From the IMG/VR virus record IMGVR_UViG_3300014656_000004, positions 1-53,303 of that record: a DNA stretch of 53,303 bases, one strand, 5' to 3'. Of the stretch, positions 641 through 50,715 are shown piece after piece (within the stretch, counting starts at the first letter, position 1; each line of letters starts with the position of its first letter). The notes beneath the pieces were generated by a model. That model saw nothing but the letters and a program-made list of their open reading frames with translations, was not told where the DNA came from and searched no databases. The translations under genes were made by a program, and so were the position numbers. This stretch comes from a virus. Lineage: Duplodnaviria; Caudoviricetes.

Positions 641-670
641 TTCACTTTTCAATTAAACCCTGCGGAGGGC

Positions 671-2263
671 TTATAGCATCACGGCTTCTGTGAGTCCCGT
701 CAGCTTCACGGCTCTCGGGTCCGTAGGACAGATCAAGTTGAAATACCAGAAGGGAGCCTCAAGTAACTCCTGTGGAGCACCCGAAGAAGCGTGGGCAATC
801 ATAAATACGCCGGAAAGTCCACCAAGTGGGGCAAGAAATTCGATTTCCTGTCCCATACTTGCTTCCACTCCGCCCAATCTCGGAGGACTATATCTCTGGA
901 TATTGTCCCCACCGAACTTCATAGCATACAGGTTATTACTCAAACACATCGGACTCATAATCCACTCATAGGTTCGTCCACCGAACTCGTAGGATATCTG
1001 AGACCAACCGCCTTTGAAGCTCAAGGCTTTTCCAGTACGCTCATAATTTTGCCTGTTATTATACAGACCCGGCTGTTGGAGCCATTTCAACTGAACGCCC
1101 TGCGTAGTAATGATGGTATCAAGAGTTTCCCCGGGATACGCATCCAGATACCCACCGATATAACCATTGATTACATCATCGGTAAGAGGACCATTCACGG
1201 CCTTGACTTGGGATTTGAATTGAGGATAGTACGTCAAATCAAGAGCGGCAGCTGCCGAAGCCCCACCCAAAATCGTACCGGACGACTTAATCCAGCTATT
1301 GAGTCCCCAACTAAACTGGGGGCGATTGCTGACACGGCTCGTATGAGCTATCACTATCCAGTCCCCCGCCGCAGCGTCGTAACCGCTTTGGTTCCAATCT
1401 CCCGTTGTATTGCAGGTGGCCTGATAAGTCGCCTGTACACCGGTCACGGAGTTAATGGCCTTAAATGTGAATGCCTTGCCAAGGTAATCAACATTAGTGA
1501 TAATACATTGGCAATAGGAAGCAGCCGTATATTCATAGTTACGTACATCCGTCCCATTTGTATCCGTACCTTCCTGAATTACTCCATCACTATCGGCGAC
1601 AATATCAATCCGCATACCCTGACGGAAATTCGAGATTCGACCATAAGATTCATCAATAGTAATTTTGATGTAATTGGTAGAACCAACCTCTTCGATGACA
1701 GATATTCTCCCCAGAACCTGATTCACCGCACCCGAACCCGCAGAATTTAGAGGATTATAGGAGAAAAAGCTGGAGGCCTCATATATGGCTTTCAGTTTAG
1801 CCACAGCCTTCATATCCCGTGCCACCTTCTTAATCTGGGCGGCGTTCAACAAATCAGCCTGTTGCCAAGAAGCAGGAATACTAAAATTCCCCACTACTTT
1901 ATGCAGAACAAGCTCCCTCTTAATATCGCCCATGTGTGGCGATTCCGAAGCCTTCGGAAAAATTGACAGACCATCAATAGGAGAAGATATACCGTATCTC
2001 TGGTCTAACAACTGGGTCTGCGTTCCCGTAATCGTATCCATTGTCGGGCCAAGAGGATCACCCGACTCCATCAAACCGGCAACTCCGGTTTCGTAAAGGT
2101 GTATCACCTTATATCCACGTCCAAGACCTTCCTGACCTTTCACTCCAAACGCTGTCCGTTTAATTTTATCGAACACGGGAGCTATTTCCGGGCCAGCCTC
2201 GGAAATCATCATTGGAAGCTCTTCTTTGACGAGATTATTCAGAGCTTCTATTGCCTGTGCCAT
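671..2263 (-). CDS. Major capsid protein (530 aa)
   Basis: Follows terminase-portal-scaffold; capsid-like C-terminus (DTIITTQG...KGGWSQISYEFGG...SPMC...LYAM); terminator downstream. Confidence 0.8.
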   Translation of the reverse strand: MAQAIEALNNLVKEELPMMISEAGPEIAPVFDKIKRTAFGVKGQEGLGRGYKVIHLYETGVAGLMESGDPLGPTMDTITGTQTQLLDQRYGISSPIDGLSIFPKASESPHMGDIKRELVLHKVVGNFSIPASWQQADLLNAAQIKKVARDMKAVAKLKAIYEASSFFSYNPLNSAGSGAVNQVLGRISVIEEVGSTNYIKITIDESYGRISNFRQGMRIDIVADSDGVIQEGTDTNGTDVRNYEYTAASYCQCIITNVDYLGKAFTFKAINSVTGVQATYQATCNTTGDWNQSGYDAAAGDWIVIAHTSRVSNRPQFSWGLNSWIKSSGTILGGASAAAALDLTYYPQFKSQVKAVNGPLTDDVINGYIGGYLDAYPGETLDTIITTQGVQLKWLQQPGLYNNRQNYERTGKALSFKGGWSQISYEFGGRTYEWIMSPMCLSNNLYAMKFGGDNIQRYSPPRLGGVEASMGQEIEFLAPLGGLSGVFMIAHASSGAPQELLEAPFWYFNLICPTDPRAVKLTGLTEAVML

Positions 2264-2333
2264 TTTATTACCCCTTAACTAAACACATTTACACTAATAT
2301 GCAGTTAGTCGAGGGCTTCAATCCACGAATTCC

Positions 2334-3206
2334 CTACCGCATTTTTCGGGCAGCATGAACCGCCTTCTGAAGATACCTTGCGATAAGATTCTTCTCATTC
2401 GCATCCTCATTAGAAGGAACTCGCTTGATTGGTTCGTCAGCTTGGATTTCGGATGAAAGTCCTGCACTCGGCCCCAGGCCCAAAACGATGGGTTGCTGGT
2501 TGAGTCTTTTTGGAATACCAAGTTTAGTCAACTGCGACCGCACCCTCTGTACGCTTGCAGCAACCATCTCGGCCCCAAACGGTTTACCATCTTGAATCTT
2601 CCGAAGAACATCCTCAGCTACCATATCTTTAACAGCGAGGGTTACTTCCTCACTATCTTCACCTACTATCATTTTACCAATTATTTCATCTTTGTCAACC
2701 GCTTTGTCCGATATTTCTCGAATTTCTTTCCTGGCATCGTTGACATGCCTATTCTGGGAATGCTCCAAAACAGCTCTGACCTCCGCAGGAGAGGCTCCCA
2801 TCACCTCCTGAAATTGTTTATTAAAATCAGGTGTAGTGGCTTTTAAGTCCGGTTTCTGCGGAGGTTCTTCTTCCCGGAGGTACTGCATAAATTCTTTGGG
2901 GTCAATTTCCAATAAACCGGCCAATTCCCGAACATCGGTTTCTGACGGATTATCCCCTTCGGAAACCAACTTTACGAGTGTCTCTATCCTCATTCCCCGT
3001 TCGGCGGCTTTTGTGGCTTGAGCGGCAGCTTGGAATCTTTTATCTGCACCAGACGCTTTTGAGGCCAATTCCTTCAACTCTTCAAGGGTTAATGCAACAT
3101 CCTCCTTATCCACCTTAATAGTATAGGTTTCGACTTTTTTTTCCTCTTGCTTTTCCTCTTGCTTTTCTTCTTGTTTTTGCTCTTCTTGCTTTTCCTCTTT
3201 TGGCAT
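2334..3206 (-). CDS. Capsid scaffolding protein
   Basis: Charged EEKQ N-terminus and YTIKVDKEDVALTLEEL scaffold-type motif; lies between portal and capsid. Confidence 0.75.
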   Translation of the reverse strand: MPKEEKQEEQKQEEKQEEKQEEKKVETYTIKVDKEDVALTLEELKELASKASGADKRFQAAAQATKAAERGMRIETLVKLVSEGDNPSETDVRELAGLLEIDPKEFMQYLREEEPPQKPDLKATTPDFNKQFQEVMGASPAEVRAVLEHSQNRHVNDARKEIREISDKAVDKDEIIGKMIVGEDSEEVTLAVKDMVAEDVLRKIQDGKPFGAEMVAASVQRVRSQLTKLGIPKRLNQQPIVLGLGPSAGLSSEIQADEPIKRVPSNEDANEKNLIARYLQKAVHAARKMR

Positions 3207-3226
3207 TTTATCCCTTTCTATTCAAA

Positions 3227-3424
3227 TTATTTGGTTTCAAATAAGTTACAGTTATTTTCCTTATTTCTCCGTCTTGGACGCAAAATTCTTTTATAATATT
3301 TACTATACCAAGTCTGTTTGGTAAATCTGTAATTTTCAGGATGGTCACAATATAAATAACCCGGGTCTGATATACATCCCGTAGATTTCAGATATTTACA
3401 TTCGGAGCAAAAAACCTCTTTCAT
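3227..3424 (-). CDS. Small Cys-rich hypothetical protein
   Basis: CxxC...C...C pattern; AAGGA RBS. Confidence 0.65.
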   Translation of the reverse strand: MKEVFCSECKYLKSTGCISDPGYLYCDHPENYRFTKQTWYSKYYKRILRPRRRNKENNCNLFETK

Positions 3425-3447: not shown

Positions 3448-5466
3448 TTATTGCGGAGGCATTATTCCCTGTGGGGGTTGTAATTCAAGTTCTGCTGCCT
3501 CTTCCATCGGAGGCATTCCTTCCGGCATTATTCCAAGCCCAACATTATGTTGCTCATAGTGTTCAACAAATTTATCCCTTACCACTGGAGTAGCGGCGTA
3601 AAATTCTGGCCTTGCCATAAAAGCATCGAGGACACTTTTATGGATTAAGTGCATATCTCGCTCACTTACTGTAACTTTCCCGGGGGTTTCTCCGTCTCCA
3701 AATAAGGCAAGATTTTCAAGTTTTGCTCTCCGGTAATTTTGATAAGCCACTTCGTTGCCAACCGGGGAAGTTAATCCCATCTCCCGCACCTTGAAACTGT
3801 ATTCATCAAGGGTGATTATTCCATCCTTGAGGGCTTCTTTTAATTCCATTTTCTGTTGTTCTTTTGAAATAGGAATTTCAGACGCAACATTTATATTTAC
3901 TTCGTCGGGGGACGGAATCGCATTTCGACCCAAAGTGATTTCACCAGTTTCCATATCGAAAACTATCCCAGCAAGAGAATCGTCGAGATTACTAATATTA
4001 ACGACTTTTTCAGCAGGCCATAAATCTCTACAAATCCCCAACATAGCCCGATAAACTCCTGAAATAGCTTCGGCTACATTCTTAGCGGTTGGTGATAGAG
4101 GGATAGCACTCGTTTCATATAAGAACCCCAAACCGGAAGCCGAATCAACACGCCCAGGTGCTCCGCCTTTCAACATTTCAGTCGGTTGATTCGCAAGTTT
4201 ATCCATCAAACTACCTGCAACCATAGCTGCATCTACCTGTGGCTTTGTCATTTTTGCGGGTTCAATCGTAAACGGTTTTAAGTCTGGAGACGTATAATCT
4301 GGTTCATACGTTATCCTTTTGACCCCATCTTGTCCTCGATGGGCGTCTGGGGGAGTACCAAGGGATGCAGGCCACATCAACAATCCATATAAATCGAAAT
4401 CGGTGACAGCTTGAAACAGGCTACTAAGACTAAACTCCGCTTCGGTATTTAATGGGATTAGGGTATCAACGAAGGAACGACCATAAAATCCCCCCACAAC
4501 AATATCACGTGCGATTTTCACGGGCATGTGGTACTTGCTTTGGGAATGGTCATGGCGATATAACTGAGCCAATTTATCATAAGAACCGGCAAGGATAAGG
4601 TACTCCGCCAAATACCCATCAGATGTTTCAGTCCAAACCTCGACGAGTAAGGTAACATCAACCTGCGTTTTATCTTTTTTAGTATGTCGTCCTTTCCACT
4701 GCGTCTCAACCTGACTTTGGCCGCTTCGGATATAGAAACCCCCCCCCGTATGAGTGAGAGATGCTGTCCCCTGAAATTTGGAGGACACATCTGCGGGTAA
4801 ATCCCCGAAAGGCACTTTCAAATCATCCATTCCTTTATAGACTTTTGAATTTTTACTCGGGGTTATTGAGAGTCCTTTTACATAATCTGTAGGGACGTAC
4901 CTAACCCGTATCAATCCCCGCACATCCGATGGAGTAGATACATCTATGGGGATAGGTATCAGTTCCCAAGGATTAATAACCTCAATCCCAATACTATCAA
5001 TTCCCTCTACCCATAACCCAAACCCAATCGTCCCATAATGGAGCAGAGGTGGGAAAGCATTAAGAACCAATTTAGAAACCTTTTCCTGTGGAAACGCCGA
5101 ATCCAAAACCACCTGGGCCGTACTCGCCTTCCTTAATCCGTCAAGACTGACCCCTCTCCGTGATACGGCGGGAGCCAAATTTATCGCCAACAACCTTCCA
5201 AGTTGAGCCTGATACTTGGCTACAATATCCTCATACCTGAATTTAAGAATCCCCGATTCATCCAAATAAGAAGCATTCAAGGTCCCACTACCATAATTTA
5301 TGTTTGAGAAATTTCTGATCCCTCTCATATAATAGTGGTTTATCCACCAATTAACGGAAATTGGATTCATTTTATTCTTGCCAGTGGAGACAAGATATTG
5401 AATGATTTGCTCGACTTGCGGTCTATTTGCAGACGTATCTTCTGGTAAAGAGAATTTATAACCCAT
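3448..5466 (-). CDS. Portal protein (672 aa)
   Basis: Size, position after terminase, GGFYGRSFVDTLIPL portal-like segment, Pro/Gln-rich tail. Confidence 0.75.
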   Translation of the reverse strand: MGYKFSLPEDTSANRPQVEQIIQYLVSTGKNKMNPISVNWWINHYYMRGIRNFSNINYGSGTLNASYLDESGILKFRYEDIVAKYQAQLGRLLAINLAPAVSRRGVSLDGLRKASTAQVVLDSAFPQEKVSKLVLNAFPPLLHYGTIGFGLWVEGIDSIGIEVINPWELIPIPIDVSTPSDVRGLIRVRYVPTDYVKGLSITPSKNSKVYKGMDDLKVPFGDLPADVSSKFQGTASLTHTGGGFYIRSGQSQVETQWKGRHTKKDKTQVDVTLLVEVWTETSDGYLAEYLILAGSYDKLAQLYRHDHSQSKYHMPVKIARDIVVGGFYGRSFVDTLIPLNTEAEFSLSSLFQAVTDFDLYGLLMWPASLGTPPDAHRGQDGVKRITYEPDYTSPDLKPFTIEPAKMTKPQVDAAMVAGSLMDKLANQPTEMLKGGAPGRVDSASGLGFLYETSAIPLSPTAKNVAEAISGVYRAMLGICRDLWPAEKVVNISNLDDSLAGIVFDMETGEITLGRNAIPSPDEVNINVASEIPISKEQQKMELKEALKDGIITLDEYSFKVREMGLTSPVGNEVAYQNYRRAKLENLALFGDGETPGKVTVSERDMHLIHKSVLDAFMARPEFYAATPVVRDKFVEHYEQHNVGLGIMPEGMPPMEEAAELELQPPQGIMPPQ

Positions 5467-5904: not shown

Positions 5905-7752
5905 CTATCCTACAATGATATTTCGACCCCGCGTTATGCGACGATTGTTTTTATCAATAGCGGGTTTTCTGGCTCTTTTACTCAAGACATCCACCATTTC
6001 CTCCGTTATCTCCGCAGGAGAAACTCCCGACAATAGAGGCATTCCTTTTATCAGGGGAAGATTCCGTTTAATGCGTTCAAGTAAACTTGGCTTCTCTTTT
6101 TCCCTGACAAATTGCCCCCCCCGATTCTTAACGACATATTGACTCATCGAAAGCGTATCTATAACATCATCGTGCGGTAATAAGGCCAAATCAGGAGTGA
6201 AGTCCTCTGTCTGTTGGTACAGCTGGTCGAATGGCCATTTCCCAGCCAAGTGGGCGGGATACTTTATCTTCCCGGGGGAATACCGCCATTCCATCCCTGA
6301 AATTCGTTGAGATTTAGAGACTTTCGACGGGTACGTGATGGGGAAAACCCTCGCTCGCCAAGGCGTACCAACCTTACTTTCCATCTCATCAATATACTCT
6401 TTGACAGCCTCCGCAAAACTCATCTGAATACTTATGGCCTCTATCCCCAGAACTCTCGGACGCCAAGCCAATCCCTTCTCATATATCAATCGCAGAAGAG
6501 TTGCATCCTTCGCTCTCCCCAGCCATAAATCCAAAATCCATAACGTATTCAAAGTATCAAATCCGAGGATGGCAATACACGAATAATCGTTATATTGGGA
6601 CATACCACTGCCATAATCGAATAACAGAATTCGATACATCGGAAGGACGAGTTCCCGATACGGCTTCTCAAAATCCTTATAAATCCTCCGGCCAGGTTCC
6701 ATATAGCGTTCCGACCATTTTATATTCCCCGTATGAGCCAGAGGATTATTCCAATCGAATTCCCCCTCAACACTATATTCATTCTTGCGGGGGTCAATCA
6801 CAAGAATCCGGTCTTGCTCTGATACTGGTTCGTTACAATACTCGGATGCAAATGCAGATACTCCTATTTCCTCCCGACGTGCCTCCAAAATTTCTTGAGA
6901 CCATTTCTCCGGCCACAAAACATATACTTTTTTCGGGTCATCTTTGTCATACACTATTGCCTTTAGAACTTTACGATTCCAAAAATCAAATCTTGAGTCA
7001 TCACTTGTTGTAGCATGGTAAAGGAAAGACCGACGATTGATTAACGTCCCTGCCCAAAAAATACACGATCCAGATTCAAGCATTGGTATGATTTGACGGA
7101 ACAAAATCATCTCAAACTTTTCTACAACGGCCTGAGCAGATGCCTGTGAATCAGAATCGGGGTCATTTTCGGGGTCATCGAGTATAAATAATCTTGGGCG
7201 GCCTCCCCGCTTTTTCCCCATCACACTAAGTCCTTTTATCACCGCCCCATTCCGCAAATGAAGATGATGATGATTCCAAATAGACTTCCCCCGCAGAGGT
7301 TTTTGTTCCCCAAAATCTTGCAGTATTAACTCATTTTCGACAAATTGCTGAATCAGTTTGTCGAACCGTTCCTCCACTAACCTATCGGTTGCTAATCCAA
7401 GAGTCATCTCGTAATGAGATCGAGTCAGGGCAAGCAGCAAGGGAGCCTCAAGACCTATAACAGAAGATTTGGCCGAACCCCTGGGAGCCGCTTCCGCATT
7501 CCGACCGTATGTCCCCAAATCAGAAATCATCTCATAATGAAAATCAGGGGATTCCTCAAAACCATTTTTGTAAAAGAGTTTCCCGGCCCCTGCAAGATAG
7601 CATCGGCGAAAGAAATCCCAAGCCACTACCAAGTCAAAAGGAGTCGATTGATTATGCAGAACAGCCAACCTCGCTTGTTTCTGACTGTCCAGTGACAACT
7701 CCTCATAATCTTTTGGGAGAGGCCATATTGGATAAGGTCGTTTAATCCACAT
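5905..7752 (-). CDS. terL: Terminase large subunit
   Basis: Walker A PRGSAKS, Walker B ILDDPEND, RNase H-like LLFD...DYSCI...HDDVID. Confidence 0.92.
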   Translation of the reverse strand: MWIKRPYPIWPLPKDYEELSLDSQKQARLAVLHNQSTPFDLVVAWDFFRRCYLAGAGKLFYKNGFEESPDFHYEMISDLGTYGRNAEAAPRGSAKSSVIGLEAPLLLALTRSHYEMTLGLATDRLVEERFDKLIQQFVENELILQDFGEQKPLRGKSIWNHHHLHLRNGAVIKGLSVMGKKRGGRPRLFILDDPENDPDSDSQASAQAVVEKFEMILFRQIIPMLESGSCIFWAGTLINRRSFLYHATTSDDSRFDFWNRKVLKAIVYDKDDPKKVYVLWPEKWSQEILEARREEIGVSAFASEYCNEPVSEQDRILVIDPRKNEYSVEGEFDWNNPLAHTGNIKWSERYMEPGRRIYKDFEKPYRELVLPMYRILLFDYGSGMSQYNDYSCIAILGFDTLNTLWILDLWLGRAKDATLLRLIYEKGLAWRPRVLGIEAISIQMSFAEAVKEYIDEMESKVGTPWRARVFPITYPSKVSKSQRISGMEWRYSPGKIKYPAHLAGKWPFDQLYQQTEDFTPDLALLPHDDVIDTLSMSQYVVKNRGGQFVREKEKPSLLERIKRNLPLIKGMPLLSGVSPAEITEEMVDVLSKRARKPAIDKNNRRITRGRNIIVG

Positions 7753-7768: not shown

Positions 7769-8011
7769 TCACTTTTTTTTATGGCCTCCATTTAACTGGG
7801 CCAAAAAATGACTTATATCAGCTAAACAAGTTGAATTAAAAACAGTTTCCGGTTCCGGAAAAAAACAATACTGTCTCCATCTACTAAACCATTCCACTGT
7901 TCCTAACCAATAATTTGTATCTTTACTCCAACAAAAAAAAGTGCTCGTTTTTCTTTGAGGACGTCGTGAAGATACGTCCTCAAAATAAAGATATTTATAT
8001 TTAAGCTTCAT
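7769..8011 (-). CDS. Hypothetical phage protein
   Basis: LGTVEWFSRWRQYCFFP...CLADI small phage-protein pattern; coupled to the upstream ORF. Confidence 0.7.
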   Translation of the reverse strand: MKLKYKYLYFEDVSSRRPQRKTSTFFCWSKDTNYWLGTVEWFSRWRQYCFFPEPETVFNSTCLADISHFLAQLNGGHKKK

Positions 8012-8738
8012 TTTTGAATTCTTTAATGACAGGAAGCAGATGAATTACATCGAAGAAAGCTATCGTTATTGCAATTCCCGCAGACCACGCCGAATTTCCT
8101 TTATTTGATCCCATCACGATTCGCAGACTTGGCCAAATCCCTTCGATATACCCAGGTTGATTCAGAAGAGCAAAGACCATTTCAGGAATTTTAGCCCTAT
8201 CCGCAAAATCCCAAGTCGTTGTCGAAGGAGTCGTCATCGGCTCAGCACATAAAATCTTTATATGAAATGCAACAGTGGCTGGCACAAATCCATCCTCTCG
8301 GATATATTTCTTCAGAGCCGTAAGCTCAACATCCTCCGCAGGTTGATTTATCACGCTGTCTTCTGCTTCCCTAAACATTTTCTTCTGCATTTCTTTATCC
8401 AATTCCCCCTGCATAAAAGTTATTTCTTCTTTTTCACTCTGCGGAGGTAATTCCGGGGAAGAGGTCTCGGCTACAAGTTGGGGGTCTGGTTTTGATACAG
8501 GGATTGGTATTTCCTTCTCCAATTCCTGCTCTTGAAGTCTCTCCTCCGTCCGGCGGTTCAGTTCCTCCAGAGCCAGCATTTCCGACGGGGAAGGCTCGTC
8601 CGGTATCTCGGATGGGTTCTGTGGAACTGGGGTCAGAACTGCATTCTCCGGTAGGTCGCTCAGTTTCCCTTTTTTTGGATTGACTCTGTCCCCTATCGCT
8701 TCCTCTATTGGGTTCGGTTCGGGTTTCTTTTTTGTCAT
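8001..8738 (-). CDS. Hypothetical protein with Pro/Glu-rich N-terminus
   Basis: AAGGA RBS before ATG 8738; globular-looking C-terminus. Confidence 0.7.
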   Translation of the reverse strand: MTKKKPEPNPIEEAIGDRVNPKKGKLSDLPENAVLTPVPQNPSEIPDEPSPSEMLALEELNRRTEERLQEQELEKEIPIPVSKPDPQLVAETSSPELPPQSEKEEITFMQGELDKEMQKKMFREAEDSVINQPAEDVELTALKKYIREDGFVPATVAFHIKILCAEPMTTPSTTTWDFADRAKIPEMVFALLNQPGYIEGIWPSLRIVMGSNKGNSAWSAGIAITIAFFDVIHLLPVIKEFKNEA

Positions 8739-9105
8739 TTTGTGATTCCTTAATTTCGGTGGATTCTATTTGTTTCATTGGGTTAAGTACCTTTGCAATA
8801 CGTTTTGCAGAAAATGTAGTTGTCCCTCCGTGAGCATCGGAAATTGTTTGAGACACTCTTGCAGTGTACCCAGATGTCTCCGCAGCCTCCCGAAGCAATT
8901 CACGAAGATGTTTCAAAGCCTTGAATTTTATCGAAAGGTTTGAATTTTGCTTAGCCAAGGCAAGTGTTTCTCGGATTTCAAGACTATAATTCCATCCAAG
9001 CTCTCGAAACATATTCGTGATGATGCTTGGATCATTAAAACTCTGAATAGCAGCTAACACATCTTCCGGACTCGGCTGCTCAGATTTTTCAATTTCGTTA
9101 GGCAT
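8434..9105 (-). CDS. Hypothetical protein, candidate terminase small subunit
   Basis: Helical N-terminal 125 aa upstream of terL; C-terminus overlaps the next ORF; TerS call is positional only. Confidence 0.5.
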   Translation of the reverse strand: MPNEIEKSEQPSPEDVLAAIQSFNDPSIITNMFRELGWNYSLEIRETLALAKQNSNLSIKFKALKHLRELLREAAETSGYTARVSQTISDAHGGTTTFSAKRIAKVLNPMKQIESTEIKESQNDKKETRTEPNRGSDRGQSQSKKRETERPTGECSSDPSSTEPIRDTGRAFPVGNAGSGGTEPPDGGETSRAGIGEGNTNPCIKTRPPTCSRDLFPGITSAE

Positions 9106-9482
9106 TACACATATATAATAAAAGTTGGTTTCTTTGCTTTCTTTGCTTTTTCGATGGTATCGGCGGTTCCACTGGATTTACCATCCCAAAAGGCTAATAC
9201 CATATCACAATTATCAACTATTGTTTGGTTGCGAATGAACCCTGCCGACTTGCCATATTTTTTCCATTCAGGTAAATATCTTACTATTTCAATCCCCCAA
9301 GAAGTCGCCCACCTCTCTCCGATAGAATCTGCTCCTTTTGCCCCGCCTGAAATTAAGGTATCAAATTGACGGGGGGCTTCAGAGAATCGGGATAAGGTAT
9401 CTATCAACAAATCATAATCATTAAAAGTCCGACTACCTACGATTGCCAATCTGGTCATAACATTAACTCCAAATATGTTCAT
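9105..9482 (-). CDS. SLOG-superfamily (YspA/DUF2493-like) protein
   Basis: IVGSR...ISGGAKGAD...YGKSAGFIRN...AFWDGKSSGT motifs. Confidence 0.88.
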   Translation of the reverse strand: MNIFGVNVMTRLAIVGSRTFNDYDLLIDTLSRFSEAPRQFDTLISGGAKGADSIGERWATSWGIEIVRYLPEWKKYGKSAGFIRNQTIVDNCDMVLAFWDGKSSGTADTIEKAKKAKKPTFIIYV

Positions 9483-9584: not shown

Positions 9585-10001
9585 TCATTTTTTTGGTTCC
9601 TTTCGAGCTTGAGCGTTAGATTGGGAAATTAGTTTTTTTATCATACTACTGTCTCGACCAGTGGCTGCTGCCATTTCAGCAAGGACTCGGGGAGAATTTG
9701 CCTCGTTCAAAATTTCATTGGTGACTTCGATGAGGAATCCCTTATCCCGAAGTCTTTTCTTGGTTTTATCATCTGTCCCAGGAAATAAAAATCCCGGACT
9801 TCCCGGACGAGAGAGAACAAAGAGAATCCGGTTGAAAGTTGGGAGAGAAAAAAAGATTCCATCCCCGAAATACAAGGGTTTTATCCTCAAGGCTCGGAGG
9901 TATCGCAGGGCCATTTTACGGGAAATTCCGAAGGTGGTTTCGAGATGTGAAATCTCAATTAATTCGTTGTCGCCAAAGTTATAGGTTTTCGGTAAATTCA
10001 T
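9585..10001 (-). CDS. Putative HTH DNA-binding protein
   Basis: ISHLETTFGISRKMALRYL helix-turn-helix-like segment; has its own promoter. Confidence 0.5.
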   Translation of the reverse strand: MNLPKTYNFGDNELIEISHLETTFGISRKMALRYLRALRIKPLYFGDGIFFSLPTFNRILFVLSRPGSPGFLFPGTDDKTKKRLRDKGFLIEVTNEILNEANSPRVLAEMAAATGRDSSMIKKLISQSNAQARKEPKK

Positions 10002-10020: not shown

Positions 10021-10060
10021 AGTATAACAGATTTTGGTTTTATTTCAAGGCCTCCGCAGG
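10021..10060 (-). promoter_or_regulatory. Promoter TTGAAA-N16-TATACT with CCTGCGGAGG just upstream of -35
   Basis: Hexamers at 10043-10048 and 10021-10026; motif at 10051-10060. Confidence 0.6.
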
Positions 10061-11463
10061 TTATTTATTTTGGGGTCTCCTTTTACGACATGCTGCGGCG
10101 GCAGCGTCAATAATACTCTGCCTGCGTTCATCATTATGAGGAATAACCTTAGTAACCTCCGCAGGAATATTGTCGATGTGTAGGGGGATGGGATGGATAC
10201 CTTCAACTGCTGCAATTCGGCGAATCGCTATTTCACAGTATTCCGGCTCTTTCTCAATACCGATGAAGTTGATTCCTAATTCCTTACAAGCCATCCCTGT
10301 TGTACCTGATCCAAGAAATGGGTCAAGAATAATTTGTTCTGCGGAGGGCATTTTCAAAAGAGTACAGAGATATTTCATCAAGGCAAGAGGTTTGACCGTT
10401 GGATGTGTGTTGGTTCTGATTGTTTCTCCACGTTGGTAAGGATTGTCAATTGGGGTTTGACGACCATCATTTACTTTCTCTCCAGATTTATTTTCCAACC
10501 CCAGATTGCGTTCTCGTTTTGAAGTTTTTGCACAATAGAAAAATCGGGAAGCACCGCCGGAATCTTTGTGTCCTTGGGTATTCCCACCCGAAACACCAAA
10601 CATGCCAATACCTTTACCATCACCTTTATTCTTACGAAAACTGCTCGGCGTTTTTCCACTCTGCTCATCCAGCATTTCCCCCGCTTCTTTGTCCAAAATT
10701 AAATTGGCGGGCCAGCGACCTTGATGTTCTTCGGTTATTCCTCCTTCAAACGCTGTTCGCCATCTTGGGTCTGGTTTGCCTCTAACCTGTTTTGGAATTA
10801 TCTCTGTCCCAATTCTCCCCCCTTCAATATTCAAACCTGCAACTCCATACTTTTCAGCATTATCAGCAAACGAACCTTCTTTTGGTTTCATACAAACCAA
10901 AATCGGCTCCCAAGCTGGTTTTAGGGCGGTGCCGTAGCCTTCCCATTCGGATTGACCTTTTGTAATATCTGGATGTGTTGTTCTGCCACTTTGACATTTT
11001 CCTTCACTTGCTCTTTCTGCTTCATCACTTGCTTTATAAGGTGATATAGAAATCCACTCTCTTTTATTCCCCCGCAATTTGTCTATCGCCTTCCCAATAT
11101 TATGAGACTTCGGAAACCCACTCCCATACAACCACATCATACAATCCCTAATTTCCCAACCAGCATCTTCAATAGCACAAGCTAATCGGTGAAAAGTACG
11201 AGTGCCGCCGAAACAAAGAAGGAACCCTCCGGGTTTGGTGATTCGGAACATTTCTTTCCACATTGGGACATTATAAGCAATTCCAGAGGAATCCCATTTT
11301 TTTCCCATAAATCCCAATTCATACGTCACGGAGGGTCGGTGACTATGGCACTAATACTGTTTGAAGGCATTTTTCGCACTACCTCAAAACAATCGCCACA
11401 AATCACACGACCCACATACTCCTTCAAGTCCGGTTGTGTCGTTTTAGATGGCATTTTAGACAT
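10061..11463 (-). pseudogene. N6A/N4C DNA methyltransferase (beta class), interrupted in the DPPY motif by a 5-nt insert with an in-frame TGA; pseudogene or recoded gene
   Basis: Upstream 45-aa ORF 11463-11326 (ICGDCFEV...IVTDPP*) plus downstream YELGFMGKKWD...GFPKS...HPTVKP...DPFLGSGTT. Confidence 0.88.
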
Positions 11464-11790: not shown

Positions 11791-11819
11791 ATTTTAACAT
11801 TTCCTCCGCAGGAAGTCAA
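11791..11819 (-). promoter_or_regulatory. Promoter TTGACT-N17-TAAAAT with the motif in the spacer
   Basis: TTGACT tCCTGCGGAGGaaatgt TAAAAT. Confidence 0.8.
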
Positions 11820-12545: not shown

Positions 12546-12574
12546 ATTTTAACAAACCCTGCGGAGGAAGTCAA
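12546..12574 (-). promoter_or_regulatory. Promoter TTGACT-N17-TAAAAT with the motif, in the opposite orientation, in the spacer
   Basis: TTGACT tCCTCCGCAGGgtttgt TAAAAT. Confidence 0.8.
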
Positions 12575-35461: not shown

Positions 35462-35479
35462 TTAAATTTCATTTTCTAA

Positions 35480-39287: not shown

Positions 39288-39315
39288 ATTATAACACATT
39301 ATTTGATTTTGTCAA
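39288..39315 (-). promoter_or_regulatory. Promoter TTGACA-N16-TATAAT for the ejection-protein operon
   Basis: Consensus hexamers. Confidence 0.7.
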
Positions 39316-42027: not shown

Positions 42028-45000
42028 CTATGATAATCTATGGGCACAAAAAGATGTTGGTCGTGTTGCTGCTCCTAATAAAGTTCCATTTGCTCCAAAA
42101 TTATGATTAACTTCACCTTCAATAAAATCATTTGCAGCTAAATAAACTAACCCAAAACAAATAGTATTTTGACCATCGGTAGTATTAGTATGTGTTTGTG
42201 AAGATAATACATAGTCTGTACCATTCTTTTTTATGGCGGCTTGAATATATTTATTAGCCACACAAGGAAGAAACCGTGCTGTTAAACCAACCCAATAATA
42301 ACCAGCATTTGTCACTGTAAATCTATGGTTGGTTACATTATCATATTCTCCATCTCCATCAAATACTTCTGAATCACACAACACTTTAGTCCACGTTGTA
42401 GATGCTATAGTTTGACTTGAACTAAGTGAAGCATAAAATCTTGAACTAAAAGCTCCCCCGCCACCTGTTCCTAATTGAACATCAGTACCAACATCATTTG
42501 TAAACCACAATGTATTTGGGGTATCGTTCTTAACCCAAATTTGTCCCTTGGCGGCTATATCCGCTCCAGCGGCGGCAATTTCAGTTAGGTAGAGACCTCC
42601 ACCGGAATTTATCCTTACCCTTTCTAAAGGTGTTGAACTCCCTGCCGGACAGGTATAAATTGACAATCTACCAGGTAAATCTCCTGCACCAGGAGCACCA
42701 TCAACAAAAAATCTAAGCTGGGCACAATCTTCATAAACTCCCACTGTGTATCCATACGCTTCAAATCTGCCAAGCTCATCCCCAGAATTAACAATTACCT
42801 CGGCCCCCAAACTACCCCTTGATTTATAGTATTTAACCGAGGAACCATAAGCACCATCTGAATTATTTATGGTACTAAAATAATGATTAAAATATTGGGC
42901 TATGTTACCGGTAAGAGTTAAACCAGCAAATTCTGGGGAATCTCCTGTTCCCAATCCTATTGAAGTTCTCGCAGTAGCCCCTGATTCCCAAGCCAATGCC
43001 CCAGCCCCAGTACCCACAAGAAATTCACTATCAGCAGCATTTGCCCCCAATGTATTCAAATCATCAAGTACCGCACCAAATGCCTGTACATTAGTACCTA
43101 TTACAAGACTTAATTCCGCAGGTGTAACACTATGAGGATTACCAGCCACTAATTGACTATGCGTATAAGCAGTATCCCAGTTAGTGTTTTCAGTAGTTGA
43201 TACATGCACACTGTTCCCACCAGCAATCTGTGAATGGTCATACGCCGTATCATAATTGGTATGATTGTAAGTAGATTCATGTGTTGTAATTAACGAGGCC
43301 GCTATTCCTAATTGTACATCTGTTCCGGCATCATTGGTAAACCAAAACTCATTAGGTGTTGTGTTCTTAACCCACAACTGTCCTTTACCGGCTATATCTA
43401 CCCCAGCAGCAGTAATTTCAGTTAGATAAACACCCCCGCCAGAGTTTATTCTCATCCTTTCTACCGGAGTTGCCCCATCACTGGGGGATGTATAAAATGA
43501 TATTCTTCCTGGCATAACACCGGAACTTGGAGCAGCGTCAACAAAAAATCTCAACTGAGCCGCATCTAACCAACCAGCACCATCGTGTCCATAAGCCTCG
43601 AATCGCCCTAATTCGTCCCCGTTATTAACAATAACTTCTGCATTATGAGCACCCCTCGATTTAAGTAATTGAAAAGAGTTACCATAAGCACTATCTGTCA
43701 TTACATAAGACCGAACAATCGCTCCCGAATTGGTTATAATATTTAGATGGCTTGAAAGGTCTAAACCCGTAAATGTTGGGCTATCCCCCGTCCCCAATCC
43801 GAGAGTTGTCGCCATAGCCGCCGCAGTTAAATCATCCAATAAAGCCCTGCCTGCGGAGGTTATTGTAGTTTCGGCCCACGTAGCTTCCCCATAAAGTAAA
43901 TCCCCCGCCCCTGTAAATAATTTGTACTCTGTGGTTGCTGCTATTGCATAAGACCCATCTGAATTAAGGTCTGCAACATACCAATGTTTATCTTCCTCAT
44001 CAATTTGAGGTGCTTCAGTCCAAGTGACTCCATAATCCTCGGACATATATAGCTTCCCATCCCATATATGGGCTATTAAATGAGACCCATCCGAATCCGA
44101 TGATACTCCCTGCCAATTTTGGTTCCCATCTCCCGCTGGCTGTCTCTCTGTCCAGCTCACTCCATAGTCTGCTGATGTATATAGTCTCCCACCATATACA
44201 CACGCCACCAAATGAGACCCATCAGAATCAGAGGCTACTCTACTCCAATTTTTAGTTGTAGCTCCTGCTGGTTGTCTTTCCACCCAATTCACACCATAAT
44301 CCGATGAAGTATATAGCTTATATCCATATATTCCCGCTATCAAATGAGACCCATCACTATCAGAAGCCGAGCAATACCAATTTGCAGTTTGGCCTGGATT
44401 GGGCTGCCTCTCAGTCCAATTTACTCCATAATCTGCTGAAGTATATAACCTTCCTCCAGGGGTTTGATGTGCTACCAAATGAGACCCATCAGAATCAGAA
44501 GCCACTCCATACCAAGCCTTATCTGCATCCCCCCCCGGCTGCCTCTCAGTCCAATTTACTCCATAATCTGCTGAAGTATATAACCTGCCATATAGAACCG
44601 CCGCTATTAGATGAGAACCATCTGCATCGGAGGCTACATAAATCCAATTTTTATCGGCGTCTCCTGCCGGTTGGCGTTCAGTCCAGGTAACTCCATAATC
44701 CGCTGATGTATATAATCTACCACCAGAACCATATATTGCTGCTATCAGATGAGAACCATCTGAATCAGAAGCAGCACACCGCCAATATTTAGTCGTAGCC
44801 CCCGCAGGTTGTCTTTCAGTCCAAGTAGCAATCCCAACACCATAATTGGAATCATAGGCACTGGTGTAAATCATTTGGTCCACAGCCGTACCAAGGTTGT
44901 TTATCAAGTCAAGATTATGAGGAAGTGCTACCAAAAAGTTAGAATTCGAGCCTTCATGTAGGATTGTTGTAACACCATCTATCCCTGGAATTCCCTGAAT

Positions 45001-45288
45001 TCCTTGTGGCCCAATTAAACCTTCAAGATTATATGTTATTCCTGCCGCCCCGGGAATGAAACCCCCCGCCAAATCATTGAGTTGTGTACTTTGTCGAGAA
45101 ACCTCCGCAGAATAACCATAATCTCCATAGCGTCTCGCTGTCCCCCCACCGCCCCAGGGGGTAACGATTCCCAATCCATCTATGGCCATGGCATTATCTA
45201 TACCAGGAACGAACATTCCCTGTAGTTGAGGAGTAGGGACAGATACGTTTTCGGCGTTTTCTCCAGAGATGGTAAATACTTCTGCCAC
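42028..45288 (-). CDS. Tail fibre / receptor-binding protein with BNR (Asp-box) propeller repeats, a duplicated domain and a C1q-like tip
   Basis: About six YTSADYGVxWTERQP repeats; short collagen-like GPQGIQGIPG; C-terminal FTVTNAGYYWV. Confidence 0.8.
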   Translation of the reverse strand: MAEVFTISGENAENVSVPTPQLQGMFVPGIDNAMAIDGLGIVTPWGGGGTARRYGDYGYSAEVSRQSTQLNDLAGGFIPGAAGITYNLEGLIGPQGIQGIPGIDGVTTILHEGSNSNFLVALPHNLDLINNLGTAVDQMIYTSAYDSNYGVGIATWTERQPAGATTKYWRCAASDSDGSHLIAAIYGSGGRLYTSADYGVTWTERQPAGDADKNWIYVASDADGSHLIAAVLYGRLYTSADYGVNWTERQPGGDADKAWYGVASDSDGSHLVAHQTPGGRLYTSADYGVNWTERQPNPGQTANWYCSASDSDGSHLIAGIYGYKLYTSSDYGVNWVERQPAGATTKNWSRVASDSDGSHLVACVYGGRLYTSADYGVSWTERQPAGDGNQNWQGVSSDSDGSHLIAHIWDGKLYMSEDYGVTWTEAPQIDEEDKHWYVADLNSDGSYAIAATTEYKLFTGAGDLLYGEATWAETTITSAGRALLDDLTAAAMATTLGLGTGDSPTFTGLDLSSHLNIITNSGAIVRSYVMTDSAYGNSFQLLKSRGAHNAEVIVNNGDELGRFEAYGHDGAGWLDAAQLRFFVDAAPSSGVMPGRISFYTSPSDGATPVERMRINSGGGVYLTEITAAGVDIAGKGQLWVKNTTPNEFWFTNDAGTDVQLGIAASLITTHESTYNHTNYDTAYDHSQIAGGNSVHVSTTENTNWDTAYTHSQLVAGNPHSVTPAELSLVIGTNVQAFGAVLDDLNTLGANAADSEFLVGTGAGALAWESGATARTSIGLGTGDSPEFAGLTLTGNIAQYFNHYFSTINNSDGAYGSSVKYYKSRGSLGAEVIVNSGDELGRFEAYGYTVGVYEDCAQLRFFVDGAPGAGDLPGRLSIYTCPAGSSTPLERVRINSGGGLYLTEIAAAGADIAAKGQIWVKNDTPNTLWFTNDVGTDVQLGTGGGGAFSSRFYASLSSSQTIASTTWTKVLCDSEVFDGDGEYDNVTNHRFTVTNAGYYWVGLTARFLPCVANKYIQAAIKKNGTDYVLSSQTHTNTTDGQNTICFGLVYLAANDFIEGEVNHNFGANGTLLGAATRPTSFCAHRLS

Positions 45289-48720: not shown

Positions 48721-49113
48721 TTATTCTCCTATCGCTACACGCTCCTGCCTTTCGGTTTCTTCGGCATCTTCATCTTGTAGCCTGTGGTAATAATCACTAT
48801 CCCCTCGGATAATCGCCTTGGAAGTCTCCTCCGCAGTAAGGGGGGCAAATAATAATTTGCGTAACTCTTGGGCTTTTTTATGTGTGAAATTACCAAGAGA
48901 TTTCCCGAGATTCATTACATCTACAAAAGTATCTTGGTAATCATCCGTCCATTCACAGACACAAAAAACCCCAAGTTTATTATATCGAAGAAGAAAAAGG
49001 TGACCCCTCCTTTTAGGATCACCTTCTACTATTCGATTCAACCATTCCGGGAGACCGCTTCCATTGATAAGCGTGTGTTCTTCGGAATCATATAAAGAAA
49101 CTAATCCGAGCAT
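48721..49113 (-). CDS. Hypothetical protein
   Basis: Operon packing. Confidence 0.65.
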   Translation of the reverse strand: MLGLVSLYDSEEHTLINGSGLPEWLNRIVEGDPKRRGHLFLLRYNKLGVFCVCEWTDDYQDTFVDVMNLGKSLGNFTHKKAQELRKLLFAPLTAEETSKAIIRGDSDYYHRLQDEDAEETERQERVAIGE

Positions 49114-49115
49114 CT

Positions 49116-49331
49116 CTACTCCTTTTTCTTATCGTCCTTCTTGATGGCTTTGGGGGCGTTAGCAACAGCCTGACTTGCTTTATCAAATTGAATCGCTTTT
49201 TCGTACAGCATTTGCTCCCCCTGAAGAATCATACTCAACTCATTGGCCGTCAGGGGTAATCCGTTCACCAATATTCGTCCTGTGAGTAATACACTCTTCA
49301 AACTCTGATGTGCTTGTTCTACTGGATTCAT
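49116..49331 (-). CDS. Hypothetical protein
   Basis: RBS and operon packing. Confidence 0.65.
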   Translation of the reverse strand: MNPVEQAHQSLKSVLLTGRILVNGLPLTANELSMILQGEQMLYEKAIQFDKASQAVANAPKAIKKDDKKKE

Positions 49332-49352
49332 CTTTCATCCTTTCTAAAAAAA

Positions 49353-49607
49353 TTACTTTTTCTGTTTCTTCTTCTTATTAAATCTACTTGTGTCAACCTT
49401 TGATTCTCGTAATTGAGCTTCAACAGTTGTACTGCGGAGGCCTGGCCCTTTGAAGTAAGTTGGTTGTTCCCCTTCCTTCAACCATTGGGCATAAGTCATA
49501 GCGTGCTCCGGCCCTGCTTTTTTGTAATGTTCAAGATACCGTTTTTTCTTTTCAGTATCCCTCTTAGTCGTCCCCAATATAGCACGAAGTAAATTGCTTT
49601 TAGCCAT
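49353..49607 (-). CDS. Basic hypothetical protein
   Basis: GGAG RBS and operon packing. Confidence 0.65.
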   Translation of the reverse strand: MAKSNLLRAILGTTKRDTEKKKRYLEHYKKAGPEHAMTYAQWLKEGEQPTYFKGPGLRSTTVEAQLRESKVDTSRFNKKKKQKK

Positions 49608-49617
49608 AATTCATCTC

Positions 49618-50715
49618 CTAAGCATCTGCCGTAAAACCGAACAGAATTAAACTAAAACTACCATCTGTTTCCAAAATCCGCACCGGATTATTCCGCCCTA
49701 TTTTAATCGCCTCTGGAAAGACTACCGATACTGGTTGCATAACCCCAGCAGCCGCCACAATTCCCGTACTGAAAAATCCAACGGACGGAAGCGGATCATC
49801 AGCGTCATTTTCCCCTAACTTTCTAAAAGGAGGCCCACATTTCTTAATAGCGGCAGTTGCCCCGGATTGTTTGCTGGGAGACCAATCGACCCCACTCAAT
49901 GTCGATTTATAACCATCATTGTTCCCGATTTCATAACAAGTACTCCCTGTACCTTCATCGTTATTCCAAGCTAAAACCAATCCGGTTTCCCCTCCATCAT
50001 ATTTCCGACCTATTCCTTCATTATAATTGGCAAGAACGGTCGCAGCCGATAGGTTAGCACTCGACCCCGTATAGAAACCAATCGGGCCAACCCACATATC
50101 TTTGTTTGCTACCCCTGTGCAAATAAGAGTACCAGCAGCATCTATAGCATCATTCATCGCCACAGTGGTGACAGCAGTAGCATCAGCAACTCCATCAATA
50201 TATATCTGCAATCCTGTAGCTGAGTCACGCTCTCCAACCACTGTGATTAAATGCCACCCATCAAAGATAGATGTGCTTCCCGTTATCGTAATCGAGGTCG
50301 TACCATCTTTGATTGTAAATGTAACCAAACCTGCGGCGGTTACTTCAAGTGTAAACCCTTCCGTACCAACGGTTGCTCTGGTAAGTAATCCGGCCACTGC
50401 ACCTGTAGCCGTAGGAATATAAACCCACATTTCAATAGCAAAGTGACCATCACTTGCTTCGTTAGCTATATCTAATTTTGCTCCACCATCCGCAGCAGTC
50501 CAAGTATCATTTGTATCAAAGTAAAGACAACTCCTCCGCAGAAGGTGAAAACCGTCTTCGGTGGCTAAAGGCCCATCAAGCTGGTAGCCGGTTATCCAGT
50601 GGCTACTTCTTCCCTCAACACTATTTAATAGGGTTGTGGATTTTGCAATGTTGCCGTTAAGATGAACTATAGGCCAATTACGTCCACATTTCATAGGTCT
50701 CGTTTCTTGTGGCAT
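49618..50715 (-). CDS. LamG / concanavalin-A-like virion protein
   Basis: FAIEMWVY...DGWHLITVV...IYIDG...LVLAWNNDEGTG. Confidence 0.8.
   Translation of the reverse strand: MPQETRPMKCGRNWPIVHLNGNIAKSTTLLNSVEGRSSHWITGYQLDGPLATEDGFHLLRRSCLYFDTNDTWTAADGGAKLDIANEASDGHFAIEMWVYIPTATGAVAGLLTRATVGTEGFTLEVTAAGLVTFTIKDGTTSITITGSTSIFDGWHLITVVGERDSATGLQIYIDGVADATAVTTVAMNDAIDAAGTLICTGVANKDMWVGPIGFYTGSSANLSAATVLANYNEGIGRKYDGGETGLVLAWNNDEGTGSTCYEIGNNDGYKSTLSGVDWSPSKQSGATAAIKKCGPPFRKLGENDADDPLPSVGFFSTGIVAAAGVMQPVSVVFPEAIKIGRNNPVRILETDGSFSLILFGFTADA

Follow-up and report, generated by a model that had tools for sequence, protein, structure and literature searches.

The 53,303-bp DNA analysed here, a complete virus record of IMG/VR (IMGVR_UViG_3300014656_000004; Duplodnaviria, Caudoviricetes) that served in its full length as our window and is called G000 below, carries an exact nine-base word, CCTCCGCAG, in 40 copies, 20 on each strand, which corresponds to one copy per 1.33 kb. 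Our results show that this word is a DNA-level signal under selection and not an artefact of protein sequence or codon usage. Its orientation matters, because the copies are regularly spaced along each strand but not when both strands are pooled. The same exact word is found in related phages, at partly conserved places, and has spread to an unrelated phage lineage. It looks like a direction-dependent signal of the 'this is my DNA' type, comparable to Chi in some phages of Escherichia coli. We tentatively favour the idea, though at less than even probability, that this signal is polar and that a DNA-tracking helicase-nuclease reads it, as happens with Chi in Chi-rich phages.

Enrichment, arrangement and conservation of the word

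CCTCCGCAG, which reads CTGCGGAGG in the opposite orientation, heads the 7-, 8- and 9-mers of G000. The initial annotation of this DNA had listed about 40 copies, divided equally between the strands, and every one of its 40 coordinates is correct. Its estimate that less than one copy would be expected by chance agrees with our dinucleotide-preserving shuffles (100 in total), which contained a mean of 0.20 copies and at most 2. The enrichment also holds over a codon-aware null: when synonymous codons were shuffled within 52 minus-strand open reading frames (ORFs), the genic copies had a mean of 0.94 in 1000 shuffles (standard deviation 0.97, maximum 7), compared with 29 observed. Among the places at which synonymous codons permit the word, 12 of 37 are occupied for sense CCTCCGCAG and 17 of 25 for sense CTGCGGAGG. 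The figure of 29 genic copies among the 40 is based on a crude ORF set, and two more copies (16688 and 26184) lie in ORFs dropped by that set. As had been pointed out at the outset, the strands are balanced even though the minus strand carries every long ORF. Several reading frames are indeed used, albeit unevenly: of the 17 genic copies with sense CTGCGGAGG, 14 are read as x-Ala-Glu-x, and of the 12 with sense CCTCCGCAG, 7 are read as x-Ser-Ala-x. The mixture of frames and the codon-preserving null bear out the earlier proposal of a signal at the DNA level, and this signal spans the whole phage chromosome, as likewise proposed.

A further property of the word is its exactness. Each single-mismatch variant is present in 0-7 copies, compared with the 40 exact ones, and the same applies to three relatives. 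Copies with one mismatch total 27, which brings the count at up to one mismatch to 67, against 6.4 expected; many such copies had been reported, and the four given as examples exist, three of them one base away from the place assigned to them. At base 10, the copies carry G (20), A (17) or T (3) and never C, so that what is conserved is the asymmetric 9-mer together with a purine after it. The description of the motif as a quasi-palindromic 10-mer is true for the half of the copies that have G at base 10 (20 of 40) and does not extend to the conserved unit. The flanks of the copies are otherwise unrelated, and a repeat family or mobile element was rejected as their source on this ground.

The arrangement of the copies depends on their orientation. 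In G000, the gaps between copies on the same strand have a coefficient of variation (CV) of 0.52 and 0.59 on the two strands, compared with 0.93 for random placement (P 0.003 and 0.008). Across nine genomes, 17 of the 18 strand series have a same-strand CV smaller than the mean for random placement (0.31-0.73 versus 0.81-0.95), the exception being the plus strand of G008 (0.90 versus 0.91). When both orientations are pooled, by contrast, the CV amounts to 0.85-1.00 and does not differ from random, except in G006 (0.65). Neighbouring copies alternate in orientation in 31 of 39 steps in G000 (permutation mean 20.0, p 0.00015), in 25 of 34 steps in its relative G001 (p 0.007) and in 22 of 35 steps each in G002 and G003 (p ~0.1). 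They are also closer together in the order CCTCCGCAG...CTGCGGAGG, which is the same read on either strand, than in the reverse order (median distances in G000 417 bp and 1357 bp, respectively; p 0.002), and this difference has the same direction in eight of nine genomes, with a non-significant reversal in G003. In a pool of 11 genomes, a distance of less than 150 bp separates 28 of 131 convergent neighbour pairs and 2 of 129 divergent ones, counts that are not independent because the genomes share ancestry. Opposed copies come as near to each other as 23 bp, and the closest pairs form hairpins that are flanked by A-runs and T-runs and resemble bidirectional terminators.

Eleven related phage records, found in IMG/VR via the polymerase and via pattern scans, carry the same exact word at 0.6-1.3 copies per kb and constitute, together with G000, what we call family A. 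The forward and reverse copies number 17 and 18 in G001 (54.3 kb), 16 and 20 in G002 (56.7 kb), 19 and 17 in G003 (55.7 kb), 11 and 20 in G004 (30.9 kb), 25 and 32 in G005 (50.6 kb), 16 and 14 in G006 (52.0 kb), 7 and 8 in the partial record G007 (24.5 kb), 16 and 22 in G008 (55.5 kb), 22 and 21 in G019 (42.7 kb), 17 and 17 in G020 (26.0 kb) and 4 and 5 in G021 (14.8 kb), whereas a control word made of the same letters backwards occurs 0-3 times per family-A record. In tblastn searches of G001-G008, 16-35 of the 53 G000 proteins found a match, at a mean identity of 43-69%. The guanine-plus-cytosine (GC) content ranges from 0.41-0.48 in G001-G008 to 0.55 in G019, 0.54 in G020 and 0.59-0.60 in some shorter family-A loci. 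The avoidance of short palindromes also differs by member, with G000 devoid of both CTAG and GCGC (0 copies each), G006 keeping CTAG and G019 largely keeping GCGC, which suggests that restriction pressures, and perhaps hosts, vary among the members of one phage family. Despite these differing profiles, the 9-mer itself is constant. Only the preference at its flank drifts, in that G006 uses GGCCTCCGCAGG, and C at base 10 is rare in all members. G004 (L089-L090) additionally contains a second very frequent word, CCGATGCCGCC, which occurs, with its overlapping frames, in 22-25 copies.

The individual sites are conserved as well. At a nucleotide identity of ~72%, the alignable G000 sites are exactly kept in 14 of 23 cases in G001, 19 of 27 in G002 and 13 of 23 in G003, compared with the ~5% expected under neutral decay, so that the aligned sites are conserved far better than the sequence around them. 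In protein alignments, some sites keep one codon position in almost every family member, namely those at amino acids (aa) 186, 460 and 839 of the protein encoded by ORF 39312-41963, at aa 93, 401 and 803 of the polymerase and at aa 665 of the product of ORF 3448-5466. Other sites are lineage-specific and turn over while the density stays similar. The combination of shared-codon and lineage-specific sites indicates a system that is old and held in place, yet turns over at a roughly constant density.

The motif is not private to one phage lineage: an unrelated siphovirus group, referred to here as lineage B, carries the word too. This group is known from structural-gene contigs of ~6-8 kb each. 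These short IMG/VR contigs, rich in the word, contain a classical siphovirus module, with genes for an HK97-type capsid (phrog_29), neck, tail-terminator, chaperone and tape measure proteins and, in L361, also terminase and portal homologues. They hold six copies in 6.9 kb (L075), five in 6.4 kb (L067), three in 6.5 kb (L047), four in 4.2 kb (L169), six in 8.1 kb (L251) and seven in 8.0 kb (L361). None of the lineage-B ORFs had a tblastn match in the family-A genomes at an E value of 1e-4 or better, and a metagenome scan found no longer lineage-B contigs. A relative of lineage B whose capsid is 70% identical (G010) contains two copies in 21.7 kb, and 75 of 77 capsid-relative loci (L273-L349) have 0 or 1 copy, with no other word prominent. 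These counts place the origin of the enrichment in a narrow subclade within a phage group unrelated to family A. The lineage-B terminase and the family-A DNA polymerase are at most 31% identical to those of cultured phages, whose hosts are mixed, and thus offer no usable pointer to a host. In total, ~19 records carry the word.

Two other kinds of viral sequence contain it in a different form. An unrelated viral record of 44.9 kb (G023; L254 1-300) has four copies within 170 bp at one contig end, in a 54-bp tandem repeat, and this cluster looks iteron-like rather than genome-wide. Approximately 20 viral contigs with a GC content of ~0.55 (L363, L366, L368 and ~17 further loci) each have one convergent pair with a fixed gap of 91 nt and are otherwise free of copies; this pair is probably part of a conserved coding segment of another phage group.

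An additional observation concerns the ends of the phage genome. Terminal repeats are found in G000 (123 bp; 1-123 and 53181-53303) and in G001 (121 bp), but their genome positions are non-homologous. They thus appear to be assembly overlaps of circular or circularly permuted genomes rather than physical ends, and the physical ends probably vary.

Candidate readers of the word

The exactness of the word, selection at the DNA level, the regularity of both orientations and the independent gain in a second lineage together point to a reader that senses orientation and is probably common to both lineages. Exact discrimination of single bases is typical of recognition by an enzyme. The presence of the word in unrelated siphoviruses fits a shared external reader at least as well as a phage protein, and its constancy in the face of differing GC content and palindrome avoidance fits a conserved core machine. 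One can envisage a host enzyme of the RecBCD or AddAB type, the reader as we infer it, which would track along the phage DNA from an end and, upon meeting a correctly oriented word, would stop degradation and start recombination, as at Chi; the effect of the word would accordingly be protective or recombinogenic. In a circularly permuted genome, injected and replicating molecules would expose ends anywhere, and a correctly oriented copy would be needed near every possible end, in both directions, giving rise to even spacing on each strand. The short convergent pairs might double as hairpins resembling bidirectional terminators, and the intergenic copies would occupy free sequence such as promoter spacers.

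There is precedent for such a signal in phages. According to a study on lambdoid phages, no octamer is more frequent than Chi in phage P1 (50 sites, one per 1.9 kb) or in LLS (23 sites), and phage MD8 has 32 sites of the Chi of its Pseudomonas host; its authors conclude that Chi is enriched in such phages in order to exploit RecBCD (PMC12315714). Our own count for P1 is 31 plus 19 sites. In addition, the helicase-like fold that scans for Chi spans eight or nine bases, as stated in a further paper (PMC4614115), which makes a nine-base Chi structurally possible.

Several points weigh against a Chi-type signal, and the pattern in P1, the outcome of the host search, the length of the word, the recombination genes of the phage and the pair bias are the reasons why we do not rate its probability higher. 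P1, the one Chi-rich headful phage tested, has Chi sites that cluster on each strand (per-strand CV 1.25 and 1.35) and do not alternate (23 of 49 steps), and in its closest inverted pairs the G-rich word comes first, so that it is the reverse of G000 in all three respects. Chi sequences are known at lengths of 5 and 8 bases (PMC4614115), shorter than the 9-10 bases seen here. The Chi-rich phages of the lambdoid study are without recombination genes of their own (PMC12315714), whereas G000 encodes an AAA_24 protein, an SbcC-like ATPase, an Mre11-like exonuclease, PD-(D/E)XK and ERCC4 nucleases and endonuclease VII. The closer spacing of convergent than of divergent pairs is unexplained by Chi logic, and the four promoter-spacer copies, by virtue of their fixed place, would also fit a repressor that binds double-stranded DNA.

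The search for a host belongs to the same side of the argument, as none of 433 sampled and 18 hand-picked genomes has the word at a Chi-like density, with a maximum of 57 copies per genome. The 251 Patescibacteria, a sample that includes the unpublished G182, contain up to 39 copies per genome (control word 21), those of one Campylobacterota order (121 genomes) and of one genus (61 genomes) up to 37, and the 18 single genomes up to 57. Similarly, a scan for the hairpin pattern with one genome per species yielded no locus with more than four copies among the matches listed. A lineage-B contig is part of a metagenome-assembled genome (MAG) labelled Sedimentisphaerales, and this MAG shows no enrichment (28 copies, control 16). 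Three cyanobacterial genomes have 39-57 copies (control 1-6). In three loci from two filamentous cyanobacteria (L149, L209 and L172), the 9-mer is embedded in a conserved hairpin repeat of greater length (...GCCTG-CCTCCGCAGGCT-loop-AGCCTGCGGAGG-CAGGC...), and a Calothrix genome has about ten similarly spaced pairs. A Sulfurovum-labelled MAG of 1.7 Mb (G280; e.g. L399-L418) stands alone among 181 relatives in having 37 dispersed copies (control 2) with unrelated flanks; at one copy per 46 kb, and with base 10 showing no preference for a purine (22 of 37), this MAG is a lead and not a host. Finally, two of the three copies on a Brocadiaceae contig lie inside a 24-bp inverted repeat that flanks ~3.4 kb (L350 9834-13282, G025:C364), as in an insertion element, and this is a chance overlap with the motif.

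The word could also be read by a phage-encoded protein that binds or marks it on duplex DNA throughout the chromosome, acting as a global repressor or silencer, in compaction, in self-recognition or as a shield against nucleases, in the manner of mycobacteriophage stoperators or of an operator set covering the chromosome. We consider this explanation, which is that of the initial annotation, doubtful but well worth keeping in mind. It would be in keeping with the inheritance of the same word throughout the family whatever the GC content and palindrome avoidance, with the extended version GGCCTCCGCAGG of G006, as expected from a drifted, co-evolving reader, and with the copies at 11803, 12559, 31823 and 35493, which begin 1-2 nt after the -35 hexamer in 17-nt promoter spacers, where a bound protein would block RNA polymerase. 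Moreover, a conserved motif pair brackets the start of the helix-turn-helix (HTH)-like gene at 26995-27315 (minus strand), whose product, a candidate binder of 106 aa, has a sub-threshold Cro/C1-type match (HTH_26, E 0.0063, 17.2 bits versus a cut-off of 22) and tblastn relatives in G001-G006 and G008 but none in the partial record G007. However, the initial annotation, which had named this protein and that encoded by ORF 9585-10001 as HTH-type binders, finds little support here: the latter has no match in Pfam, NCBIfam or PHROGs, neither candidate has profile support, and the copy at 27262, thought to lie in an upstream control region, is inside ORF 26995-27315. About three quarters of the copies are intragenic (29 of 40), and the exact word dominates, whereas operator sets usually tolerate variation. 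Regularity on each strand without regularity of the whole would not be expected of an orientation-blind binder; for the same reason, and given the asymmetry of the unit, the symmetric dimer site originally envisaged is unlikely. The unrelated lineage has the word but shares no detected gene in the ~6-8 kb compared per contig, and a reader that is 30-59% identical across the family would have to retain an unchanged nine-base specificity. A separate reading, unlikely though far from negligible in our estimation, is a polar 'self' code of a new kind, in which an undescribed DNA-tracking nuclease or defence motor, host- or phage-encoded, would destroy any DNA in which correctly oriented copies do not recur every 2-3 kb. 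The code would then be common to unrelated phages from a single uncultured community of groundwater hosts, the second lineage having acquired it by mimicry, and the favoured order CCTCCGCAG...CTGCGGAGG would mean that the word is read at two sites, head-to-head, rather than at a single site as is typical of Chi.

The density of ~1 per kb, the equal strands, the evenness of each orientation and the inverted pairs resembling terminator hairpins would also befit a tag that marks self-DNA for a machine translocating DNA during uptake or packaging, comparable to the DNA uptake sequences (DUS) and uptake signal sequences (USS) of Neisseria and Haemophilus or to dispersed packaging signals. Such density, strand equality, even spacing and inverted-pair terminators are hallmarks of USS and DUS. 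Nevertheless, this proposal is improbable, as no bacterial genome among those searched has such a density, a lytic phage has no obvious gain from uptake by its host, one site normally suffices for packaging, and the terminases of the two lineages are unrelated (tblastn of L361 against family A gave no match). Still less probable are site-specific single-strand nicks made by a phage nickase, as in phages tf, T5 and phiKMV. While 11 of the 14 nicks of phage tf occur in one identical nine-base word, matching the length and exactness seen here, all of them are on one strand (PMC3517423), compared with 20 copies per strand in G000; opposed nicks as close as 23 bp would leave the duplex broken, a total of forty within 53 kb would be extreme, and the word is common to an unrelated phage lineage. 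We assign a very low probability to a signal at the RNA level, in which the words CCUCCGCAG ... CUGCGGAGG, complementary to each other and present in the same long transcripts because all genes are on one strand, would pair into stems. The second of them contains a strong Shine-Dalgarno-like GGAGG, and the first resembles the anti-Shine-Dalgarno sequence; at short range, CCTCCGCAG preferentially precedes CTGCGGAGG in the sense direction (28 of 131 neighbour pairs below 150 bp versus 2 of 129), and the equal strand numbers, the alternating orientations and the terminator-like short pairs would follow as well. Yet mispairing would be promoted if every stem used the same word, structures whose loops measure hundreds of bases are weak, the exact CTGC/GCAG half would have no explanation, and the promoter-spacer copies are not transcribed in the RNAs of those promoters themselves. 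Finally, accumulation without selection for function, be it by a bias in mismatch repair, the cause proposed for cyanobacterial HIP1, or by a mobile element, would agree with the large share of synonymous opportunities that are used; it is extremely improbable, though, considering that one-mismatch words are not depleted (27; 67 versus 6.4 expected at up to one mismatch), that spacing is regular on each strand and that the unrelated flanks do not correspond to a mobile repeat.

Positions of the copies and genes of the phage

Large terminase (5905-7752) and a family-A-type DNA polymerase (28740-31325) were identified in G000 by profile searches, along with an N6/N4 DNA methylase (ORF 10061-11329), an AAA_24 ATPase (ORF 22878-23825), an SbcC-like ATPase (ORF 24640-26067), a PD-(D/E)XK nuclease (ORF 25871-26923), a tail-fibre-like protein (ORF 42028-45288) and sheath-like proteins; further matches include an AAA_25/DnaB-like helicase, an Mre11-like exonuclease, an ERCC4 nuclease, endonuclease VII and a trypsin-like protease. 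Most of the small phage proteins remained unnamed after searches of Pfam, NCBIfam, PHROGs and PDB sequences. There is no near DNA match among GenBank phages, and the DNA polymerase is less than 27% identical to those of cultured phages. No tRNA was found in the genome, nor any integrase or repressor family among the ~52 ORFs scanned, some of them in one library only, leaving aside the sub-threshold HTH_26 match. Shine-Dalgarno-like sequences precede most ORFs, and strong sigma-70-like promoters are present on the gene strand. Nine sequencing runs contain at least half of the words sampled from a 10-kb stretch, each of them labelled as a groundwater metagenome, and four of the nine are possible sources of the phage.

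In the first third of the genome, a copy at 660-668 (minus strand) is intergenic and lies just 3' of the stop of ORF 671-2263. ORF 2334-3206 contains a convergent pair 76 bp apart, whose first member at 2780-2788 (plus; sense CTGCGGAGG, P-A-E) is exact in G001-G003 and falls on the same codon in G005, G007 and G019, while its partner at 2856-2864 (minus; sense CCTCCGCAG, P-P-Q) is, of G001-G003, kept in G001 only. The convergent pair in ORF 8001-8738, at 8333-8341 (plus) and 8439-8447 (minus), is kept in G001, G002 and G003. The intergenic copy at 10051-10059 (plus) abuts a promoter-like -35 element (TTGAAA at 10048) upstream of ORF 9585-10001, and two more are found in the methylase gene, at 10156-10164 (plus) and 10339-10347 (minus). 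Methylation of the word by the product of this gene was considered and rejected, since tblastn finds no methylase relative in G003, G006 and G008, which hold 36, 30 and 38 copies, respectively. Promoter-like sequences of the form TTGACT-N17-TAAAAT contain a copy within their spacers at 11803-11811 (plus; promoter 11819-11791, minus strand, 17-nt spacer) and 12559-12567 (minus; promoter 12574-12546). Those at 14510-14518 (plus) and 14927-14935 (minus) are intergenic, and that at 16688-16696 (minus) is in or beside the small ORF 16630-16875. The 5' and 3' arms of a hairpin-forming convergent pair with a 14-nt loop, at 17353-17361 (plus) and 17376-17384 (minus), are both kept in G002.

Farther along, the copy at 20620-20628 (plus), in ORF 20276-20860, is absent at this place in G001-G003. 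ORF 21027-21602 has copies at 21140-21148 (plus) and 21389-21397 (minus), the AAA_24 ATPase gene at 23654-23662 (plus), ORF 23837-24499 at 24370-24378 (minus), the SbcC-like ATPase gene at 25116-25124 (plus) and the PD-(D/E)XK nuclease gene at 26184-26192 (minus). The copy at 27262-27270 (plus) covers codons 16-18 of the weakly HTH_26-like ORF 26995-27315 and is kept in G001-G003, and that at 27550-27558 (minus) is situated ~75 nt downstream of a promoter-like sequence (27659-27632) and upstream of ORFs 27303-27488 and 26995-27315. Two copies reside in the DNA polymerase gene, at 30380-30388 (minus; aa 314) and 30750-30758 (plus; aa 191). A TTGACT-N17-TATAAT sequence on the minus strand includes the copy at 31823-31831 (minus) in its spacer, and a second, near-identical promoter-like site contains that at 35493-35501 (minus). 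The long ORF 31853-35008 has one copy at 33322-33330 (plus) and ORF 36151-36600 one at 36387-36395 (plus).

ORF 39312-41963 accommodates five copies. Three occupy deeply conserved places, at 39443-39451 (plus; aa 839), 40581-40589 (minus; aa 460) and 41402-41410 (minus; aa 186), the first of them falling on the same codon in G001, G002, G003, G005 and G008 and one codon off in G006; the other two are located at 41066-41074 (plus; aa 298) and 41237-41245 (minus; aa 241). The tail-fibre-like gene contains copies at 43851-43859 (minus) and 45102-45110 (plus), and the last three are those at 48828-48836 (plus) in ORF 48721-49113, which is kept in G001-G003, at 49432-49440 (minus) in ORF 49353-49607 and at 50533-50541 (plus) in ORF 49618-50715.

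Several features of the genome merit mention in their own right. The perfect promoter TTGACT-N17-TATAAT is present in two near-identical copies of ~47 bp, at 31790-31850 and 35460-35520, with the motif in the spacer, each upstream of a small ORF (31318-31578, 86 aa, and 35204-35461, 85 aa). Short palindromes are avoided to an extreme degree, as seen from the observed and expected counts of CTAG (0 and 86), GCGC (0 and 45), CGCG (5 and 38), GATC (29 and 184) and CATG (58 and 137), and CTGCAG, CTCGAG and CGGCCG are each absent from G000. The methylase region is adjoined by a small SLOG-family protein at 9105-9482 (YAcAr, E 4e-16, with a weaker DprA-like match). ORF 20276-20860, a core gene, matches families of deoxyribonucleoside 5'-monophosphate phosphatases (phrog_318, E 2e-52). 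Such phosphatases occur in phages that replace a canonical base, and the phage DNA may thus be modified. The 1051-aa protein encoded by ORF 31853-35008 has no match in Pfam, NCBIfam, PHROGs or PDB sequences. Its nearest ESM-Atlas clusters, a lead that comes without an alignment, are viral 'large polyvalent protein associated domain' proteins, which suggests a polyvalent virion protein that may act as an injected anti-defence protein.

Relation to known systems

If the word is of the Chi type, an uncultured groundwater lineage would thereby have its first candidate Chi, one inferred from phages alone, unusually long and subject to a spacing rule, even on each strand and alternating, that is not seen in P1. 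The word could then also serve as a sequence tag that links phages to hosts, such that an enriched bacterium or phage would belong to the same interaction network. If it is instead read by a phage protein or an unknown defence motor, it would constitute a compact and testable form of genome-wide self-marking in a virus. In either case, the exact word, its 40 mapped sites and the ~19 carrier records allow direct experiments. Literature searches by motif gave primers and unrelated uses among the matches listed, and those by phrase listed no description of the word or of evenly spaced, strand-balanced phage motifs, and searches that paired the 8-mers with Chi or uptake terms gave nothing on it among the matches listed; in its available part, the Hardycor1 paper treats motif avoidance only (PMC7911831).

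Among the repeated sequences described previously, cyanobacterial HIP1 is likewise a highly iterated short word, but it is a true palindrome of a host genome, whereas the word considered here is asymmetric; HIP1 itself is absent from each of the ten phage genomes in which it was counted. The stoperators of cluster A mycobacteriophages are also asymmetric sites present in tens of copies throughout the genome of a phage, and some overlap promoters. They differ in that they follow the direction of transcription, lie mostly between genes and vary somewhat, and in that their phages are temperate and have a known repressor. The word of G000, by contrast, is exact, mostly intragenic and balanced 20/20 in orientation in a genome whose long ORFs all lie on one strand. 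The DUS of Neisseria and the USS of Pasteurellaceae resemble it as exact words of 9-12 bases that occur about once per kb, evenly and on both strands, and form inverted-pair terminators. Those sequences are a property of the chromosome of a competent bacterium and are read by its uptake machinery, whereas the carrier here is a lytic-looking phage family, with no enriched bacterial genome among those searched. The nick sites of phages tf, T5 and phiKMV share with it an exact nine-base word repeated through the genome (14 times in tf; PMC3517423) but number 4-14 and are confined to one strand, compared with 40 copies on both strands, some of them 23 bp apart.

The likeness to the Chi-rich phages P1, LLS and MD8 goes further. 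In them, too, a short asymmetric word is the commonest oligomer, present about once per 1.3-1.9 kb and far above chance; it does not result from codon usage and undergoes evolutionary turnover (PMC12315714), and P1 also has very close inverted pairs. On the other hand, the word of G000 comprises 9 bases plus a purine rather than 5-8 bases, and the sites of LLS and MD8 are strongly one-oriented and clustered at the ends (PMC12315714), whereas here the strands are balanced and each is evenly covered. Under Chi logic, orientation depends on where DNA ends arise, with sites of one orientation clustered at the ends in cos phages, and a balanced orientation is what it predicts for a permuted genome, although the sites of the headful phage P1 are clustered instead. 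There is a sizeable chance that the reader of the word is something new. The nearest known kind of system is the Chi enrichment of some phages, from which the present one differs in the length of the word, the rule of its spacing and the gene context in which it is found.

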